Assembly (NCBI GenBank): GCA_041648595.1 | Contig: JBAZOQ010000001.1 | Span: 82,242 to 146,241 of the forward strand | Reading direction: 5' to 3' | Length of the DNA: 64,000 bases | Origin: Minisyncoccota bacterium | Lineage (GTDB): Bacteria > Patescibacteriota > Minisyncoccia > Phycocordibacterales > UBA9973 | In this document: one piece after another, positions 369-57,148 of the stretch | How the letters are laid out: each line of letters starts with the position of its first letter | Position numbering within the stretch: position 1 is the first letter of the stretch | The notes under the pieces: model-generated | Database searches by the model: none | What the model was told of the DNA's origin: nothing | The model's input: only the letters and a program-made list of their open reading frames with translations | Program-made: the position numbers and the translations under genes

Positions 369-1349
369 GTGAAGAAATTAGAAAATAAAAATAAAATAGT
401 TATATATCAGGCTTCATCTGGAGCTATTGAACTTCGTGGAGATTTTGAAAAAGAAACAGTATGGGCAACACAAGCACAGATTGCTCAGCTTTTTGATGTT
501 ACCCCTCAAAATGTGACATTACACTTAAATAATATTTTTAAAGACAAAGAATTGGACATAAAAGCAACTTGTAAGGAATCCTTACAAGTTCAAACCGAAG
601 GAAACAGAAAGATTAAAAGAAATATTAAACTTTATAATTTAGATGCAATTATTGCTGTAGGTTATCGTATAAGTTCAGTAATGGGAACTAATTTTCGCAT
701 TTGGGCTACGAAAACTTTACGTGAACATATCATAAAAGGCTATACAATAAATCGTAAACAAATCGCAAAAAATTATAATGCTTTTATGCAAGCTGTAGCT
801 AATGTTCAAAATTTATTACCAGAGCATATTACACTTGATCCTAAAGCAGTTCTAGAACTTATTAAAGAATTTGCTAGCACATGGATGTCAATTGGTGCTT
901 ACGATAAAGAAACACTAAAAATTATTGGTTCTACTAAAAAAGCTATTAAATTTAGTGGTATAGAATTAACTAATGCTATTATTGATTTACGTTCTAAATT
1001 AATTAAAAATAAAGAAGCTACAGAAATTTTTGCACAAGAAAGAGAGAAAGGAAGCATAGAAGGAATAGTTGGAAATGTTATGCAAACTTTCGGAGGTAAA
1101 GCACTTTATAAAACTACAGAGGAAAAAGCAGCACACCTTTTATATTTTATGGTTAAGAATCATCCTTTTATAGATGGAAACAAGCGTTCTGGTGCATTTG
1201 CTTTTATTTGGTTTTTAAGAAAAACTAAAACAAAAGGATTTAGAAATATAAATCCAGCAACATTAACAACTCTTACACTTCTTATAGCTGAAAGTGATCC
1301 AAAAAAGAAAGATCAAATGGTTGCATTAGTTACTCAATTGTTGAAATAA
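369..1349 (+). CDS. RhuM-family virulence protein fused to a C-terminal Fic/Doc-like domain (HPFIDGNKR motif); GTG start
   Basis: The N-terminal region (IVIYQ...IELRGDFEKETVWATQAQIAQLFDVTPQNVTLHLNNIF...YNLDAIIAVGYRISS..GTNFRIWATKTLREHIIKGY) is typical of RhuM. The C-terminal HPFIDGNKRSGAFAFIWFL matches the Doc/Fic HxFx(D/N)GNKR motif. Confidence 0.75.
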   Translation: MKKLENKNKIVIYQASSGAIELRGDFEKETVWATQAQIAQLFDVTPQNVTLHLNNIFKDKELDIKATCKESLQVQTEGNRKIKRNIKLYNLDAIIAVGYRISSVMGTNFRIWATKTLREHIIKGYTINRKQIAKNYNAFMQAVANVQNLLPEHITLDPKAVLELIKEFASTWMSIGAYDKETLKIIGSTKKAIKFSGIELTNAIIDLRSKLIKNKEATEIFAQEREKGSIEGIVGNVMQTFGGKALYKTTEEKAAHLLYFMVKNHPFIDGNKRSGAFAFIWFLRKTKTKGFRNINPATLTTLTLLIAESDPKKKDQMVALVTQLLK

Positions 1350-5721: not shown

Positions 5722-6273
5722 ATGCAATATAATTTTTCAAATTTTAAGACAGAAATAAATAAAATAGCAGAATATTTAGGAAAAGAATATACTCAGCTTA
5801 ATATTGGCCGAGCATCACCTATGATACTCGATAGTGTGTCTGTAGAATCATATGGTTCACGTGTTCCATTGAAAAATATTGCTTCTGTTTCTATTGAAGA
5901 TCCGAAAACTTTACGTATTATAGCTTGGGATAAAAACCAAATTAAAGAAATTGAAAAAGCTATAGTATCCTCAAATTTAGGATTATCAGTTGCTGTAGAT
6001 GGTGGAGGCATTAGAGTTATTTTTCCACAATTGACTACTGATACAAGGCAAACACTTGTAAAAGTATTAAAAGAAAAATTAGAAGAAAGTAGAATAACAG
6101 TACGTAAAGAACGTGAAAGAATTTGGGATGAAGTTCAAAAATTAGAGAAAGAAGGGAAGATGACTGAAGATGAAAAATTTAGAGCAAAAGAAGATTTGCA
6201 AAAAGTAATAGATGAAATAAATCAAAAATTGGAAGATATTTTTGAAAAAAAAGAAAAAGAGGTATTGGGGTAG
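5722..6273 (+). CDS. frr: ribosome recycling factor
   Basis: The 183-aa protein starts MQYNF...IGRASPMILDSVSVESYGSRVPLKNIASVSIEDPKTLRI... and has a C-terminal charged coiled arm. Confidence 0.85.
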   Translation: MQYNFSNFKTEINKIAEYLGKEYTQLNIGRASPMILDSVSVESYGSRVPLKNIASVSIEDPKTLRIIAWDKNQIKEIEKAIVSSNLGLSVAVDGGGIRVIFPQLTTDTRQTLVKVLKEKLEESRITVRKERERIWDEVQKLEKEGKMTEDEKFRAKEDLQKVIDEINQKLEDIFEKKEKEVLG

Positions 6274-6315
6274 AACAGCTTATAGGTGTTAGCTTTTAGC
6301 TTATAGAGAAATACA

Positions 6316-7452
6316 ATGAACATACTTATATTTATAATCATTCTTCTTGTCCTCGTCCTAGTTCATGAATTTGGACATTTTTTTACTGCAAAAAGATTTG
6401 GTATTAGAGTGGATGAATTTGGTTTTGGTTTTCCTCCTAAGTTATTTAGTTGGAAATATGGTGAAACAGAGTATAGCATCAATCTTTTACCAATCGGAGG
6501 ATTCGTAAAAATTTTTGGTGAAGATATGGATGAAGCAGATCTGTTGGAGGTTGGATTTTTAGATAAAAAAGAAACTGTAGAAAAAATAGATTCAGCAAGG
6601 AGCTTGGTGAATAAACCAAAATATCAACAAGCGTTAGTTATGTTTGCTGGAATTTTTTCTAATTTTTTACTTGCCTGGCTTTTGTTTTCTGTTGGTTTTA
6701 TGTCTGGACTTCCTACTTCGGTTGGAAGTGAACCGAAAGGATATACAGTGAAAGATCCACATTTGGTTTTAGTTTCTGTTTTAGCTAATTCACCAGCTGA
6801 AATGGGTGGATTAAAATCAGGGGATAAAATAGTTTTAATTAAAAGTGGAAATGATTTAGTTCAAAATATCAATCCTGATATATTGAAATCTTTTATAGTT
6901 TCTCATGGTGATAAAGAAATTGAGTTTAGCTATATACGTGGAAAAGATGAAACAATAAGAATTACAAATATAACTCCTTCTATAAGTGCGACTAATCAAA
7001 ACCCCAGCATTGGTATAGCTATGGATGAAATAGGTATCGTTAAATTGCCTATTTTAAGTGCCCTTTGGGAAGGTTTAAAATTAGATTGGTCTGTCACTAA
7101 AAACACTGTTATAGGGCTTTATACGCTCATTAAGGAGGGTATAACAGGCAAAGGAAGCTTCTCTTCGGTCACTGGACCTGTCGGAATGGTGGGTATAGTC
7201 GGAGATGCATACCAATTTGGTTTTGTATATTTGCTATCTTTTGCAGCATTAATTTCAGTTAATTTAGCCATAATAAATCTTATTCCATTTCCAGCATTAG
7301 ATGGTGGACGACTTCTCTTTTTACTTATTGAAAAAATAAAAGGTTCTCGTTTAAATCCAAAATTTGCAAATGGTGCTAATATGGTAGGTTTTGCATTACT
7401 AATTATTCTAATGCTTTTTGTTACTTATCATGATGTAGTTAAATTATTTTAA
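6316..7452 (+). CDS. rseP: RIP zinc metalloprotease RseP (site-2 protease) with PDZ domain
   Basis: An HEFGHFF motif (HExxH) lies in the first TM helix, followed by a PDZ region and an LNLIPFPALDGGRLL C-terminal motif. Confidence 0.85.
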   Translation: MNILIFIIILLVLVLVHEFGHFFTAKRFGIRVDEFGFGFPPKLFSWKYGETEYSINLLPIGGFVKIFGEDMDEADLLEVGFLDKKETVEKIDSARSLVNKPKYQQALVMFAGIFSNFLLAWLLFSVGFMSGLPTSVGSEPKGYTVKDPHLVLVSVLANSPAEMGGLKSGDKIVLIKSGNDLVQNINPDILKSFIVSHGDKEIEFSYIRGKDETIRITNITPSISATNQNPSIGIAMDEIGIVKLPILSALWEGLKLDWSVTKNTVIGLYTLIKEGITGKGSFSSVTGPVGMVGIVGDAYQFGFVYLLSFAALISVNLAIINLIPFPALDGGRLLFLLIEKIKGSRLNPKFANGANMVGFALLIILMLFVTYHDVVKLF

Positions 7453-26874: not shown

Positions 26875-27138
26875 ATGATACAAAGAATCGTAGCGTCCTT
26901 AATACTTCTTTTTTCTATTCTATATATGCCTTTTTATTTGTCTATAATATTGGCATTAATAGGTATAATATATTTCTCATTTTATTGGGAAAGTGTCTTT
27001 CTATTTTTTATTTCAGATTTAATTTTTGGTATAAAAGAAGAAAAACTTTTAAATATCTATTTCATATCTTTTTTAATATCTTTCATAGTTTTAATATCTA
27101 TAGAATTATTAAAAAGAAAAATTAGAATTTCAAAATGA
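26875..27138 (+). CDS. small integral membrane protein (2-3 TM), overlaps the PBP2 start by 4 nt
   Basis: An 87-aa hydrophobic ORF translationally coupled to the PBP2 gene. It could be a minimal MreD-like protein, but this is unproven. Confidence 0.45.
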   Translation: MIQRIVASLILLFSILYMPFYLSIILALIGIIYFSFYWESVFLFFISDLIFGIKEEKLLNIYFISFLISFIVLISIELLKRKIRISK

Positions 27139-44727: not shown

Positions 44728-44910
44728 TTAGTTTTGTGTTATTTCTTTAAAAAACTCTTCCCCATACAAATTTTTTATTTCAGTATTTATTTTATCTATT
44801 AAACTTAAAAATAATTTTTCAAAAACTTCTCTTGCTTTTTTATAATCTTCTTCATTGAGTTTTATTTTTGTCCCTATTGGATGGTTTTTTGCAAATTTAG
44901 TATTTCTCAT
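44728..44910 (-). CDS. hypothetical small protein
   Basis: A 60-aa ORF downstream of, and co-oriented with, the methyltransferase and the 159-aa gene. Confidence 0.3.
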   Translation of the reverse strand: MRNTKFAKNHPIGTKIKLNEEDYKKAREVFEKLFLSLIDKINTEIKNLYGEEFFKEITQN

Positions 44911-45023
44911 TTGTTTTAAATATCTTTCATCAATCTTTGAAAAAGAATGAACAATAACATGTCTTAGTGCCTGATATTTTATTATATTATCTTTTATTTC
45001 ATCATCAATTTTTAAATTTATTT

Positions 45024-45503
45024 TTAAATATTCTTCAAAAAACGAAGTGTGCTTTGTAAATCTTGAAAATTAAATTCTACACCTAATGATTTCGTTATTA
45101 CTTCTCCTAGCGTTGAAAATTTATAATTTAATACACTAACTTCAAAAACAATTTTTTTATCCTCTTTTGGCCACTGAATAATATCATGATATTCGTTTAC
45201 TATTGTGATTACTAAATCAGTTAGTGATGATTCTAAATTTGAAACTAGAAGAACATTAGCTTGATTGTAAATAACTTCATATTTATCTTTTAAACTTGGA
45301 TGATTTTTTATTTTTTCAATTTCACCAATAACTCTTTCAAGCTTTTCTTTGTAAAGAATAAAACCAGGAATTTTTTCATTCTCTTTTTCTAGTGATTTCA
45401 AAAGAACAAGTAATATTTTACTCACATCTGATCCTATTCGAGTGATTTGATCAATGGACTCTATATTTTTTCTATATTTCTCTAAAATTAATCCTGGCGA
45501 CAT
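45024..45503 (-). CDS. hypothetical protein directly downstream of the methyltransferase gene (possible partner or specificity component)
   Basis: A 159-aa, mostly helical protein with no PD-(D/E)xK or HEPN motif that I can confirm. Confidence 0.4.
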   Translation of the reverse strand: MSPGLILEKYRKNIESIDQITRIGSDVSKILLVLLKSLEKENEKIPGFILYKEKLERVIGEIEKIKNHPSLKDKYEVIYNQANVLLVSNLESSLTDLVITIVNEYHDIIQWPKEDKKIVFEVSVLNYKFSTLGEVITKSLGVEFNFQDLQSTLRFLKNI

Positions 45504-45520
45504 TTTTTTATAAAATTATT

Positions 45521-47578
45521 TTAATAATTGATATTTAAATAATTTCGGCTGGATTTCTGTTCGGCAGTTGTAAAATAAATATCTCGCTCATACCAATTTT
45601 TTTGCGGATAAAGTTTTGCGGCAAAAAGAGGGAGTTTTTCGATAAAATTATCAGAACGAAGATAAAAACCACGAATATTGTATCTTGTAGCTCGCAATAG
45701 ATGTATGTCATGTTGTGTGATGGCAAAACCTTTTGGTACTAAATATCCAATAATATTTTTATTATAAAAAGATTTACCATCAACTTTCCTACCAGTTATT
45801 TGAGATCCGTCATCTTCACAATATATATTTGTAATAATGTCATCTTTAAATGTTCGACGATCATAATATGACTCAAGTGTACTATGAGCTTTTTTTATTG
45901 TGATTTTTTCAAGCGAAACAATTTTTTCTTCTTGCTCTTGCATATTTTGAGTATAAATATCAAATGCTTTTAAGGTTAATTCTTCAACACTTTGATTTTC
46001 ATTTTGCCAAGCAATACAACTAATTGAGCTTTCACTGGCATGAAAATATTTACGATTAAAAAGATATCCATCTATAAACTTTCTATTACCAAGACCAAGT
46101 GATTTCCAGTACTTAATCGGCGAAAATAGCACATAACAATCATTCGGTTTTGTTAAATAATATTTCCATCCACTCCAATTAAATTGATTCGAAATGTCAC
46201 GAGCAGTTGATACATTAGAGTTTGCCAGATTTTTTAAATCAAGTTTCATATTCTCAAACACAAAAGTCCCTTTGCTGGTTTTATTTGTTAAATTATCAGT
46301 ATTCGCAGCACTACTGTCTCTATAAGGTGGATTCTCAAATAAAATGATATTGGTCTTTTTATCTTTTACAAAATTATTTAGCTCGGTGATAGATTTGATA
46401 TACTCCTTACTTATTTTAATTTTTGTTTTTCCGAGTATAAATTGTTCACTCAAAGCATCGCCACCATTTACAAGAGGCTCACGCCCGGTAACCTCCACCG
46501 GTGGTGGAATAATCTTTTTTACCTTAAGACCAAACCGTCCATTCAAAACAATCCATTCTTTTAATTCATAAGTGTTAACGATGGCATGCGATAATTCATT
46601 ATTAAAAATATAATCATGAATATTTATTTTTGTTTTATATTTTTCTAGTTTGCCAATAGTTATTTGATTAAAATCACTAAATTTAATAAGGGAAAGAACA
46701 TTTGCTTTATCTTTTAAATATTTATCAACAAATTCATCTGAAAGATATTTTCGCAATTCGCTGATAGTAATGTCATTTACTAGTTTATCAGTTAAAAATT
46801 CCAAAAGATTGCCGGTGCCGGCGCAACGATCAAGAATAATATAATCATTGCCTTTGGGAATCTAAGCAATAGCTTTGCGAACAAGTTCAGTGGCTTTCTT
46901 GCAATAAGCAGGCGGTGTATAAAAAGCGCCTAGCTCCTTGCGATGCATACGATCGTTTAGAAGATCCATTATGTATTTGAAATCTTTTTCCTTGCCTTTC
47001 CATAGCTGAATAAATTTTTTAAAATGTTTTGGCTCTCGAAATTCTTCAAAAAGTTTGATTTTTGTTGCTCTGGGATTTTCATCATAAAAACGATTGGACC
47101 ATCCAACAACGTCATATATGTCAATTGTTACTTTAGTAAAATTGTTTGTTTGAAGCAACTCAGTGATACATTGAATGCCGACAGGTTTATCATATTTAAT
47201 AACTTCTGGTTTTAATGTTGTACTAAACTCATCATTACTCTTGCTGGCAGCACCGATAAAAGGCGGACAGTTTATATAATCACGGGCAAAATCTTGAGAA
47301 TTAAACAGATAGGCAATTTCTTGATTTAGATCCACTAATAAGATGTTTGCTGGAATGCTAATACCCTTGACGCGTATATGGTTAAGATATTTTAGTGTTT
47401 GAAAAAGTACAGCATTGATATTATTGATATTAGGCTTAAATTCAAATATATTTCCGTTATAGATACCGTCGGTGTTATTACTGAGTTCGGTATCCGTAAT
47501 TCCAAATTTTTTAAAAAATTCAAATTGGCCCTCGCGCTCAGATTGAAAGTTATTCCCAGATTTGAATGTTTTTTTCAT
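45521..47578 (-). pseudogene. N6-adenine DNA methyltransferase (gamma-class; motif X GAFYTPP, motif I ILDRCAGTGNLL, motif IV NPPY, C-terminal TRD) interrupted by a single in-frame TAG at 46862..46864
   Basis: Track ORFs 46862..47578 and 45521..46804 are in the same frame. The M of the downstream ORF is really a TTG Leu codon. Translation through the TAG gives ...VRKAIA*IPKGNDYIILDRCAGTGNLLEFLTDKL..., restoring the conserved AdoMet motif I between motifs X and IV. Confidence 0.7.
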
Positions 47579-49057: not shown

Positions 49058-49324
49058 TTAACCCTTCATGTGTATATAAATTTCACGTAAAGGCTCATTA
49101 TCTTTTTTAATACGGTAAATATCTACTATCTCACCATCTAAATCAAAATCTTTTTTTTCTAATTCTTTACTAAAAGTAGGATCAGACTCAAGTTTAGATT
49201 CAGCGGTTGTACCACATGAAAAAACATCAAAAGGTTCAATTTTTTCTTTTAATCCCGATTCTTTTATCTTTTTTTCTAAAGATTTTTTAGGATCAAAAGT
49301 ATTTTCTATCATTCCAGTTTTCAT
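49058..49324 (-). CDS. small hypothetical protein, paralog of 49336..49626 (shared C-terminal motif VDIYRIK...Y.H.K)
   Basis: The two ORFs are tandem and align with each other. Confidence 0.4.
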   Translation of the reverse strand: MKTGMIENTFDPKKSLEKKIKESGLKEKIEPFDVFSCGTTAESKLESDPTFSKELEKKDFDLDGEIVDIYRIKKDNEPLREIYIHMKG

Positions 49325-49335
49325 AAATTTATTTT

Positions 49336-49626
49336 TTATTCTTTTATGTGTAAATATAATTTATATTTATTGTCTCCGTCTGTGCACTCAATTTTAATGC
49401 GATATATATCTACATTTTTACCATCTAGAATAACATTTTCAGCAATAGGTTTTTCATTTATTGGTAGCTTTTTTTCTATCATAATATACTCATATGGCTC
49501 AATATTTTCAATCCTACCTTCATCTATTGCTTTTTGTATTTCTTTTTTATAAAACTGCGTACCCTTATATTCTTGCTCTATTTTTACTTTACTACTATTC
49601 ACCTTGTCTATTTTACTTTGTTCCAT
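49336..49626 (-). CDS. small hypothetical protein, paralog of 49058..49324
   Basis: See the call for 49058..49324. Confidence 0.4.
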   Translation of the reverse strand: MEQSKIDKVNSSKVKIEQEYKGTQFYKKEIQKAIDEGRIENIEPYEYIMIEKKLPINEKPIAENVILDGKNVDIYRIKIECTDGDNKYKLYLHIKE

Positions 49627-54589: not shown

Positions 54590-55195
54590 ATGAAAAAATA
54601 AGTAGTTTCCATACATGGAGGAGAAACTTTTAGCTCTTATAAGAAGTATATTTCCTTTTTAAAAACGTATAAGTTTAAAAAAAATAAATTCACTAAAAAA
54701 AGATGGGCTAATTCATTACAAAGTAAGTTAGGAAAAAATTTTGAAGTTATTATACCACAAATGCCAAATGCTTTAAACGCAAAATATTTTGAATGGCAAA
54801 TTTGGTTTAAAAAACTATTCCCTTTTTTAAATAAAGAAGTTATTTTAATTGGTGGATCACTAGGGGGAATATTCCTTGTTAAATATCTGTCTGAAAACAA
54901 ATTTCCTAAAAAAATTAAAGGACTATTTTTAGTTGCTCCTCCTTTTGGTGATAGGGATAAAAAATATTCTTTAGCAGATTTTAATCCAAAAATAAAAAAT
55001 TTAAAAAACATAGAAAAACAATGCACTTATATTAATATTTACCATAGTAAGAATGACCCTGTTGTCCCTTTTGAAGATTTTTTAAATTACAAAAAATACC
55101 TAACCAAGGCTAACTTTCACGAATTTAAAAATAGAGAACATTTTAGCCAAGAAAAATTTCCAGAAATTATAAAAGATATCAAAAAAATAATATAA
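54590..55195 (+). pseudogene. YdeN/RBBP9-like alpha/beta hydrolase with an in-frame TAA at codon 4 (54599..54601): MKK*VVSIHGGETFSS...GGSLGG...
   Basis: The ATG at 54590 is in-frame with track ORF 54761..55195. The frame stays open from the TAA to 55195 and encodes the N-terminal HG region that the M-started ORF lacks. Confidence 0.55.
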
Positions 55196-55199
55196 AAAT

Positions 55200-55781
55200 A
55201 TGAAAACAATAAATAATAGAACAACAAAATATCCTATAAATGACATATTTTTAAATCGTTTTTCTCCTCGTTCAATGTCTGGAGAAAAAATAACAGAAGA
55301 AGAACTCATGACTTTATTTGAAGCTGCACGCTGGGCACCATCTTTATAAAACGAACAACCATGGAGATTTATTTATGCAATAAAAGAAACTTCAGATTTT
55401 GATAAATTTTTATCTTTTCTTATGGAAGGAAATAAAATTTGGTGTAAAAATGCATCAATATTGATTGTAGTAATTTCAAAAAAGAATCTTCCAAAAGGTG
55501 ACCTAAATATTGCTCACTCATTTGATACAGGAGCAGCTTGGGAAAATCTAGCATTACAATCTACTTCTATGAATCTAATTTCCCATGGCATGGCTGGTTT
55601 TGATTATATTTTAGCAAAAAAAGAATTTTCTGTTCCAGACGATTATAATGTTGAAATGATGATAGCTATAGGTAAACCAGGTAAAATAGAAAACTTACCA
55701 GAAGCATTTCAAGAACATGAAAAACCTAGTGACAGAAAACCATTAGAAGAAATAATTTCTGAAGGAAAATTTAATTTTTAA
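55200..55781 (+). pseudogene. nitroreductase-family protein with an in-frame TAA (55347..55349) inside the conserved APS-x-x-N-x-QPW motif (AARWAPSL*NEQPWRF)
   Basis: The ATG at 55200 is in-frame with ORF 55422..55781. The N-terminal 49 codons encode the nitroreductase FMN-binding N-terminus (RFSPRSMSGEKITEEELMTLFEAARWAPS). Confidence 0.65.
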
Positions 55782-57148
55782 AATCCTTCTTCTGTTAATC
55801 TTTCATCTATTCTATTCATATCTCGTGGAAACATTGAAGCTTCACGAATATTTTTTAATCCTAAAAGTTGCATAGTGATACGTTCAGCACCAAAAGAAAA
55901 TCCTCCTTCAGGTGGAACTCCATATTTAAAAGCTTCCAAAAACATTTTAATTTTATTAGGATCCATCCCCCAAATTTTTACATGTTCATTAAGTTGATCA
56001 TAATTGTTTATTCTGCGTCCACCTGAAAGCCATTCCACTCCACGACAAATAAGGTCTACCCCTTCATTATATTCAGGTTCCTCTGGATTGGGATAAACAT
56101 AAAAAGGTTTCTTGCGAGTAGGATATCCGTAAATAAAAACAAAATCAGACCCAGTCTCTTTTTTTACTATTTCACAAATTTCTCTTTCATCTTGTGGATT
56201 TGTATCTTTTTCTCCTCGAACATCACGATTATAAGTTTCAAAAATCTTTTGTTGAACTTCACTTAAAGAATATGTAGGAGTTTTTTCTATCATCACCGGT
56301 AAGGTGGTACCTAATATTTTTAAATGATCAACGTGTTTATTTTCTACTTGTTTTAAAATATATCTAAAAGTTTCTTCTGCCATATCACGAACATCTGTCC
56401 AAGAATCAATAAAACCCATCTCTGCATCCAAACAAACTATCTCTGTCAAATGTCTAGTAGTTGATGATGGTTCTGCACGAAAAACTTTATTTACAGAAAA
56501 ACACCTCTCAAATGCAGACATCACAATTTGTTTATAAAGTTGTGGTGATTGAGTTAAATATGCTTTTTTATCAAAATAATCAATTTTAAAAACTTCACTT
56601 CCTCCTTCTGCCACTGCTGGAGTAATGCTTGGAGCCTGAAATTCAAAAAACATATTTTTTTTCATAAATTCTCTAAAAGAATCAATTATTGTTTCTTGAA
56701 TTTTAAAAATTGCTTGTATTTTTGGTTGTCTTAAAACCAAAGCTCTATTATCAAGTTCTGCTGTTAACTCTAAATTATATCCATCAAGCGACATATCAAA
56801 AGGAAGAGTTGCAGCTTCTGCTAATACTTCAATACTAGTAACCTCAAGTTCAACATCACCATTTAACACATCTGTTTTTATATTTTTATCTGGGCGTTTA
56901 TTTACCATGCCTGTGATTTTCAAAACCCATTCTGGACGAATTTCTTTGGCAACATTTATGGCTTCTTCATGTGAAGGAAGAGCTACACACTGTACCAATC
57001 CAGTCATATCACGCATATCAAAAAAGACCATTTTCCCCTGGTCGCGCCTGATATTTACCCATCCGGTGATAATTACTTCTTTTCCAATATTATCTTTTAA
57101 ATCTTTAATATAAATTCTGTTTTTCATACTCCTATTATAATACCACAA
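55778..57148 (-). CDS. class IIb aspartyl/asparaginyl-tRNA synthetase (archaeal-type AspRS-like)
   Basis: An N-terminal OB anticodon-binding domain is followed by QSPQLYKQ, FRAEPSSTTRHLTEIVCLDAEMGF and a motif-3 GGFSFGAERI. Confidence 0.8.
   Translation of the reverse strand: MWYYNRSMKNRIYIKDLKDNIGKEVIITGWVNIRRDQGKMVFFDMRDMTGLVQCVALPSHEEAINVAKEIRPEWVLKITGMVNKRPDKNIKTDVLNGDVELEVTSIEVLAEAATLPFDMSLDGYNLELTAELDNRALVLRQPKIQAIFKIQETIIDSFREFMKKNMFFEFQAPSITPAVAEGGSEVFKIDYFDKKAYLTQSPQLYKQIVMSAFERCFSVNKVFRAEPSSTTRHLTEIVCLDAEMGFIDSWTDVRDMAEETFRYILKQVENKHVDHLKILGTTLPVMIEKTPTYSLSEVQQKIFETYNRDVRGEKDTNPQDEREICEIVKKETGSDFVFIYGYPTRKKPFYVYPNPEEPEYNEGVDLICRGVEWLSGGRRINNYDQLNEHVKIWGMDPNKIKMFLEAFKYGVPPEGGFSFGAERITMQLLGLKNIREASMFPRDMNRIDERLTEEGF

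Follow-up and report, generated by a model that had tools for sequence, protein, structure and literature searches.

A probable young pseudogene of the nitroreductase family in a decaying accessory gene patch of a Candidatus Paceibacterota genome

Introduction

The closest described relatives of the gene analyzed here are the nitroreductases of the PF00881 family, and the closest solved structure is the NAD(P)H-flavin oxidoreductase 2FRE (E=1.1e-48, residues 3-192). Our gene has the length and the motifs of these proteins (RFSPRSM... and APS-x-x-N-x-QPW), but it is interrupted at codon 50. The R-x-S-x-R and APS-x-x-N-x-QPW residues are presumably involved in FMN binding. The subfamily of 193 amino acids to which the gene corresponds is found in CPR bacteria, small-genome (DPANN-type) archaea, and Acidobacteriota.

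In CPR bacteria, Gracilibacteria and Absconditabacteria use genetic code 25, in which UGA encodes glycine. The present locus belongs to the same broad bacterial group and likewise contains in-frame stops inside conserved genes; however, the in-frame codons found here are TAA and TAG rather than TGA, only three of them occur in 64 kb, and each of the three stop codons also terminates normal genes. Young unitary pseudogenes of reduced bacterial genomes show the same picture of single lesions in accessory genes beside an intact core, whereas the nitroreductase gene is unusually fresh among them, having one lesion and no measurable relaxation. In Parcubacteria/Paceibacteria genomes, pseudogenes comprise ~5-10% of genes, which has been read as ongoing streamlining (PMC11188291); the four broken genes among ~64 found here (~6%) lie within this published range.

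This study concerns a stretch of 64 kb of DNA, analyzed over its whole length and referred to below as the window, which is part of a CPR/Patescibacteria genome. The window has a GC content of 24-34% and dense coding, with the largest intergenic gap not exceeding 454 nt. GenBank lists the open reading frame (ORF) fragments discussed below in a Candidatus Paceibacterota genome (locus tags WC839_01350-01405). We consider it highly probable that the nitroreductase gene is a young pseudogene located in a decaying accessory patch and read with the standard genetic code.

Results

The nitroreductase gene and its in-frame stop

The nitroreductase-family gene was identified by translation, Pfam PF00881, and homologs at positions 55200-55781 of the window (plus strand). 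It forms a single frame of 193 sense-codon positions with a terminal TAA, and its sole internal stop is the TAA of codon 50 at 55347-55349, within the sequence ...EAARWAPSL*NEQPWRF.... The half preceding the stop matched profile positions 3-32 of PF00881 with 23.7 bits (cut-off 23.5 bits), and the C-terminal half matched positions 82-167 with 22.6 bits, slightly below the same cut-off. When both halves were joined, with X placed at the stop, and compared with a collection of 5.8 billion proteins, 7984 homologs were found at E<=1e-10 (best E=7.7e-112). The 120 homologs listed were all uninterrupted and 193-214 amino acids long, mostly exactly 193; the few of them carrying organism names came from Candidatus Nomurabacteria, Paceibacterota or Minisyncoccia.

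An earlier reading made from the DNA letters only (hereafter the sequence-only reading) had placed the stop inside the conserved FMN-binding motif. It does lie within the motif, but at a variable 'x' of APS-x-x-N-x-QPW and not at a conserved residue. Residues R20, S22, R24, A46, P47, S48, N51, Q53, P54, and W55 are invariant in an alignment of 20 sequences and are kept in the window copy, which places the stop between invariant residues. Among the 120 listed homologs, residue 50 itself is S in 50, M in 18, Y in 18, F in 14, N in 9, R in 4, L, K, and Q in 2 each, and I in 1. Members of the family are encoded by one uninterrupted ORF, which the window copy, with TAA at codon 50, does not possess. 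Judged by its sequence, the gene is a pseudogene of the nitroreductase family and would not be counted as a functional member.

Intact relatives and the ancestral codon

Intact relatives were reached through exact-protein look-ups. The closest one, L001, is a Logan contig (SRR30681578) with 92.8% nucleotide identity, and the second-closest is L167 (SRR30681715). The window gene aligns with both over 582 of 582 nt without a gap, which bears out the claim that a single in-frame TAA is present without an indel. Codon 50 is TCA (Ser) in L001 and in L167, hence one C>A transversion separates the sense codon from TAA. Orthologs are intact elsewhere too: the 120 listed proteins and 161 of 162 other nitroreductase loci contain no interruption. 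Among representative genomes of GTDB, none of the 80 loci returned came from the species of the window, the closest being only 75% identical, and the search of JGI metagenomes yielded no locus closer than 73%.

The single exception among the 162 loci is L042 (PFMK01000042.1, positions 6001-6582, Candidatus Gottesmanbacteria), in which TGA takes the place of Trp45, an invariant residue that precedes the stop position of the window by five codons. Long ORFs (at least 150 amino acids) already cover ~88% of this locus under code 11, which disfavors the use of code 4 there, although this exclusion is not rigorous. The TGA probably arose independently, as another nonsense mutation in this dispensable family.

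The stretch of 92.8% identity with L001 extends from the start codon to no more than 1 nt from the stop codon (window 55200-55782 versus L001 74-656). The product of the convergent class II aminoacyl-tRNA synthetase gene located downstream shows only ~32% protein identity in the comparison with L001. Since the high identity is confined to the nitroreductase gene and is low in the downstream neighbor, these data suggest gene-by-gene horizontal exchange of the nitroreductase among Paceibacteria.

The adjacent hydrolase gene

Located 4 nt upstream of the nitroreductase gene, on the same strand, is a gene of 201 codons encoding an alpha/beta hydrolase of the Ser_hydrolase family (54590-55195, plus strand; Pfam PF06821, E=4e-10), which is inactivated at codon 4. 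The two genes are probably co-transcribed. The DNA, read directly, begins with ATG AAA AAA TAA GTA GTT... (MKK*VVSIHGG), and the TAA at 54599-54601 replaces a nearly invariant glutamine: homologs of ~200 amino acids begin with MKKQV..IHGG, 102 of 103 of them have Q at position 4, and the corresponding codon is CAG in L167 and CAA in L045. The hydrolase stop that the sequence-only reading had pointed out is real. Between this stop and the HGG motif, there is no in-frame ATG, GTG, or TTG; the GenBank call of 181 amino acids matches a start at residue 21, an ATT codon. Of the related loci searched, only L167 and L045 have the hydrolase and nitroreductase families close together; because the pairing is limited to these two, a functional link between them seems weak.

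The methyltransferase-like gene and its frameshifted neighbor

On the minus strand, positions 45521-47578 contain the remnant of a methyltransferase-like gene from a family of 820 amino acids, with two lesions. The first, the TAG of codon 239 (46862-46864, minus strand), was also noticed by the sequence-only reading and has been confirmed. It lies between the GAFYTP and DRCAGTGN motifs, and it corresponds to an ancestral CAG (Gln) changed by a C>T transition, as all three intact relatives (L168, L169, L170) have CAG there, in AI(S/D)QIPK. Homologs are mostly single proteins of ~796-847 amino acids, and the 88% identity to one of them, P0121, continues straight over the TAG. Related populations in SRR30681595 and SRR30681630 contain an intact form of the gene.

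The second lesion is a frameshifting deletion of 397 nt, with its junction at 45519-45561 (minus strand), which removed ~130 codons and was delineated with blastn and tblastn against intact relatives. The window copy stops matching the intact homologs of ~820 amino acids at residue 678. In blastn of the intact relatives, the alignment jumps from position 2639 to position 3036 of L168 at window position 45561. At 45557-45519, the final 13 codons of the gene (EIQPKLFKYQLLK) are still present but out of frame, and tblastn matched residues 808-820 there in another frame.

As a candidate N6-adenine DNA methyltransferase, the gene is labeled tentatively, from the visible motifs GAFYTP, DRCAGTGN, and NPPY together with a weak PADLOC hit (MTase_II, E=0.0045, residues 207-259), which is the sole profile match. 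The intact 820-residue homolog gave no Pfam match and nothing usable among PDB sequences. The family is widespread, with 3235 homologs at E<=1e-5, annotated as 'hypothetical' wherever they are named, and it may represent an uncharacterized defense-related methyltransferase family. No counterparts of the genes that flank the intact homologs in L168-L170 were found in the window. In L168, the gene is followed by an AAA_15/AAA_21 ATPase gene; in the window, it adjoins AbiE.

The neighboring gene (44728-45503, minus strand) belongs to an uncharacterized family of ~250 amino acids. A frameshift of 1 nt divides it into an ORF of 159 amino acids and a tail of ~100. The ORF (45503-45024) matches only the first ~160 residues of the best-scoring homologs of ~250 residues. 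The C-termini of these homologs align with the next frame between 45042 and 44767, and the remaining ~90 residues are encoded down to 44728. Three-frame translation and the DNA, compared with homologs reading ...LRFFEEYL..., locate the frame switch at a T6 run (45037-45042, minus strand), from which one T appears to have been lost.

An accessory patch among intact genes

The sequence-only reading had counted three interrupted accessory genes. All three nonsense codons are present, but the number of broken genes is four: five lesions affect two adjacent pairs of genes, both located in a series of 12 genes (44.7-55.8 kb) that also includes an intact AbiE toxin-antitoxin pair. The placement of four broken genes, among ~64, in such a run gave a permutation p of ~0.014, calculated post hoc. 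The earlier proposal of ongoing decay of dispensable genes gains support from the sense codons found in relatives and from the deletion and frameshift lying beside the nonsense codons. All point lesions run from GC to AT (TCA>TAA, CAG>TAG, and CAA or CAG>TAA), as expected in a genome with 29% GC.

Housekeeping genes are intact, as had been claimed, and most of their Pfam matches extend nearly from end to end. They include genes encoding MreB, RRF, ParB, RelA/SpoT, TopA, DprA, SerRS, Dus, DnaX, CtpA, L9, GluRS, MurG, FtsW, MraY, D-Ala-D-Ala carboxypeptidase, ScpB, and Ddl. The class II aminoacyl-tRNA synthetase (Asn/Asp type), DnaB, RecR, and M17 peptidase genes are intact as well.

Four other pairs of ORFs in the same frame (at 7450, 11775, 27123, and 41769) were considered as candidate interrupted genes, and none proved to be so. 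Three of them consist of complete genes with full Pfam domains (M50 protease/Ddl, MurA-like/MiaA, and cyclophilin/ScpA); the pair at 27123 consists of a complete PBP gene and a short upstream segment without a Pfam match.

Age of the nitroreductase stop and the possibility of readthrough

Using L167 as the outgroup and excluding the stop, we counted substitutions on the window branch and on the branch of the intact sister, L001. The window branch has 12 nonsynonymous and 12 synonymous changes, compared with a neutral expectation of ~80:20 (binomial p=0.0012), and it does not differ from the intact sister branch with its 9 nonsynonymous and 8 synonymous changes (Fisher p=1). The pairwise dN/dS of the nitroreductase is 0.27. 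All residues that are invariant in the other 19 of 20 aligned sequences are kept in the window copy. Three window-specific changes at well-conserved sites (A25S, L170F, R173H) are suggestive at most, and the sister branch has such changes too. Neither the branch counts nor the pairwise dN/dS revealed relaxed constraint in the nitroreductase after inactivation. Most of the window branch was evidently under purifying selection, which implies that the stop is recent; the data fit a recent stop, and they would equally fit a gene still read through at some level. Possible readthrough expression is the main residual uncertainty of this study.

Such readthrough would mean that the stops are leaky or suppressed, by near-cognate decoding or an ochre-type suppressor tRNA, and that the nitroreductase and hydrolase are down-tuned rather than dead, which we consider improbable. 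An ochre suppressor reads both UAA and UAG, and all three nonsense codons are one or the other; two of the three replace Gln. Near-cognate tRNAs at UAA insert Y, K, or Q, and Gln, Tyr, and Lys all occur naturally at position 50 of the nitroreductase. The lack of detectable relaxation of constraint in this gene also speaks for readthrough. Against it, the only tRNAs encoded in the window (Trp-CCA, Leu-CAA, and Gln-TTG) are all ordinary, with no suppressor among the three, and a strong suppressor would be costly where 60 of 63 long ORFs end in TAA or TAG. The hallmarks of programmed readthrough are likewise absent. The stop is missing from the loci of relatives. Like most TAA terminators of the window (30 of 47), it is followed by A, the most frequent context for termination there. 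The RNA of the stop region and of the sequence downstream of it (55320-55440) showed no more stable folding than shuffled sequences (z=0.01). Moreover, the deletion and the frameshift in the neighboring genes are beyond repair by suppression, and CAA/CAG>TAA/TAG and TCA>TAA are the routes to nonsense codons that would be expected under AT-biased mutation. A more specific version, in which the population tolerates UAA and UAG owing to an ochre-type suppressor (e.g., a tRNA-Gln with anticodon UUA) or to unusually leaky termination, appears more doubtful still; if it were true, low-level production of the nitroreductase and the hydrolase would continue.

The lesions in independent assemblies

The locus was recovered from other assemblies by exact-protein look-ups of the flanking and fragment ORFs. 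At the stop sites of both the nitroreductase and the hydrolase, 100% identity to the window was found in the contig k141_195877 (101.6 kb) of the ENA assembly ERZ27249422 and in contigs from the Logan runs SRR8449812 and SRR8449827. Over 16.8, 6.3, 3.6, 8.5, and 2.9 kb, the recovered contigs are 100% identical to the window, including each lesion covered, and the sole mismatch found in them lies 7 nt from a contig end. The nitroreductase TAA is also present in L002, L003, L005, and L006. The frameshift was found in the ENA contig and in both Logan runs (L171, L172, and L173 are identical), the methyltransferase-like TAG in the ENA contig, and the deletion junction in the ENA contig and SRR8449812.

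At the level of assemblies, the lesions belong to the DNA of the organism. The sequence-only reading had offered base-calling errors, or heterogeneity collapsed into a consensus, as an alternative; under it, an error made in sequencing or assembly, or the promotion of a minority variant to the consensus, would hide a real population with intact genes. This is very unlikely. The contigs are metagenome assemblies, and public assemblies may partly share read sets, which leaves such an explanation some room, but two runs assembled separately by Logan and a MEGAHIT-style ENA contig agree at 100% over 3.6-16.8 kb that include the sites, and the Logan contigs run unbroken across the sites. The same fragments of the nitroreductase (49 and 119 amino acids) occur in two NCBI genomes (MFA4975206.1 and MFA5827138.1) and in JGI data. 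The collection of 5.8 billion proteins contained no intact allele of the same strain, and the closest uninterrupted protein in it was 89% identical. A minority intact allele may nevertheless exist in the population. Independent lesions of three types, confined to one accessory patch and sparing housekeeping genes, also argue against error.

Split gene and altered genetic code

The two parts of the nitroreductase gene could also be made separately, as products of 49 and 119 or 143 amino acids, and assemble into an active enzyme. Both parts are open, and public gene callers report them as separate coding sequences (CDSs). We find this highly implausible, however, as the gene is a single ORF in the 120 listed proteins and in 161 of 162 loci and is split in no relative; a pair conserved as separate genes, which would have spoken against the sequence-only reading, was not found for the nitroreductase. 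In addition, the next in-frame ATG (55422) lies 25 codons past the stop, a start there drops N-x-QPW and the residues that follow, and the 26 nt upstream of it contain no GGAGG-like ribosome-binding site.

Genome-wide reassignment of TAA, or of TAA and TAG, to an amino acid would account for the three in-frame stops (TAA twice, TAG once) within 10 kb, but it is scarcely credible and, as already argued in the sequence-only reading, must be rejected: the 63 long ORFs in the window end in TAA (47), TAG (13), or TGA (3), their ends agree with those of homologs and Pfam profiles, and there are no in-frame stops in ~60 genes other than these three in 64 kb.

Discussion

The evidence is best accommodated by recent decay of an accessory patch under the standard code. 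A single C>A change converted the Ser codon TCA at position 50 of the nitroreductase gene into TAA in this Candidatus Paceibacterota lineage, and every assembly recovered so far carries TAA. Translation should end after 49 residues, with the loss of most of the FMN-binding fold, and no active enzyme is expected when this part is removed; from the sequence, we infer that nitroreductase function has been lost. The fourth codon (Gln) of the hydrolase gene has likewise become TAA, and the methyltransferase-like gene and its neighbor, ~8-10 kb away, are broken too. Together, the four genes may constitute an accessory patch under relaxed selection, decaying through GC-to-AT-biased point mutations and small deletions. 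Loss of the hydrolase or the nitroreductase may have weakened selection on its partner, or the function of the pair may have become dispensable. That relaxed selection was the cause, and in which order these events took place, is our interpretation.

The locus offers a clean, datable case of gene loss under way in a CPR bacterium, with the ancestral codon known for three lesions, and the lesions could mark the population for tracking. Practical value is limited to this use as a population marker and to the clean-up of annotation. These appear to be ordinary pseudogenes occurring at the published rate, and the data lend no support to a new genetic code or recoding mechanism.

With regard to annotation, a 'hypothetical protein' of 49 amino acids and a 'nitroreductase family protein' of 119 amino acids, present in two GenBank genomes, would be halves of one dead gene, and two further GenBank 'hypothetical proteins' would be pieces of one decayed gene of 820 amino acids. 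Pieces of the broken genes (window 54650-55195, 55200-55349, 55422-55781, and 45521-47578) were entered in GenBank as separate CDSs without a pseudogene flag (MFA4975195-MFA4975207 and MFA5827127-MFA5827139).

Two further observations concern accessory genes of the window. Tandem small ORFs encoding 88 and 96 amino acids (49058-49324 and 49336-49626, minus strand) resemble paralogs, both containing ...VDIYRIK...; they are flanked by the AbiE pair and an ABC-F ATPase gene, and the contig records hold no Pfam match for either. At the edge of the window (369-1349, plus strand), a protein of 326 amino acids has a Fic/DOC domain in addition to a match to the first ~70 positions of the RhuM profile and may represent another accessory or toxin-type gene.
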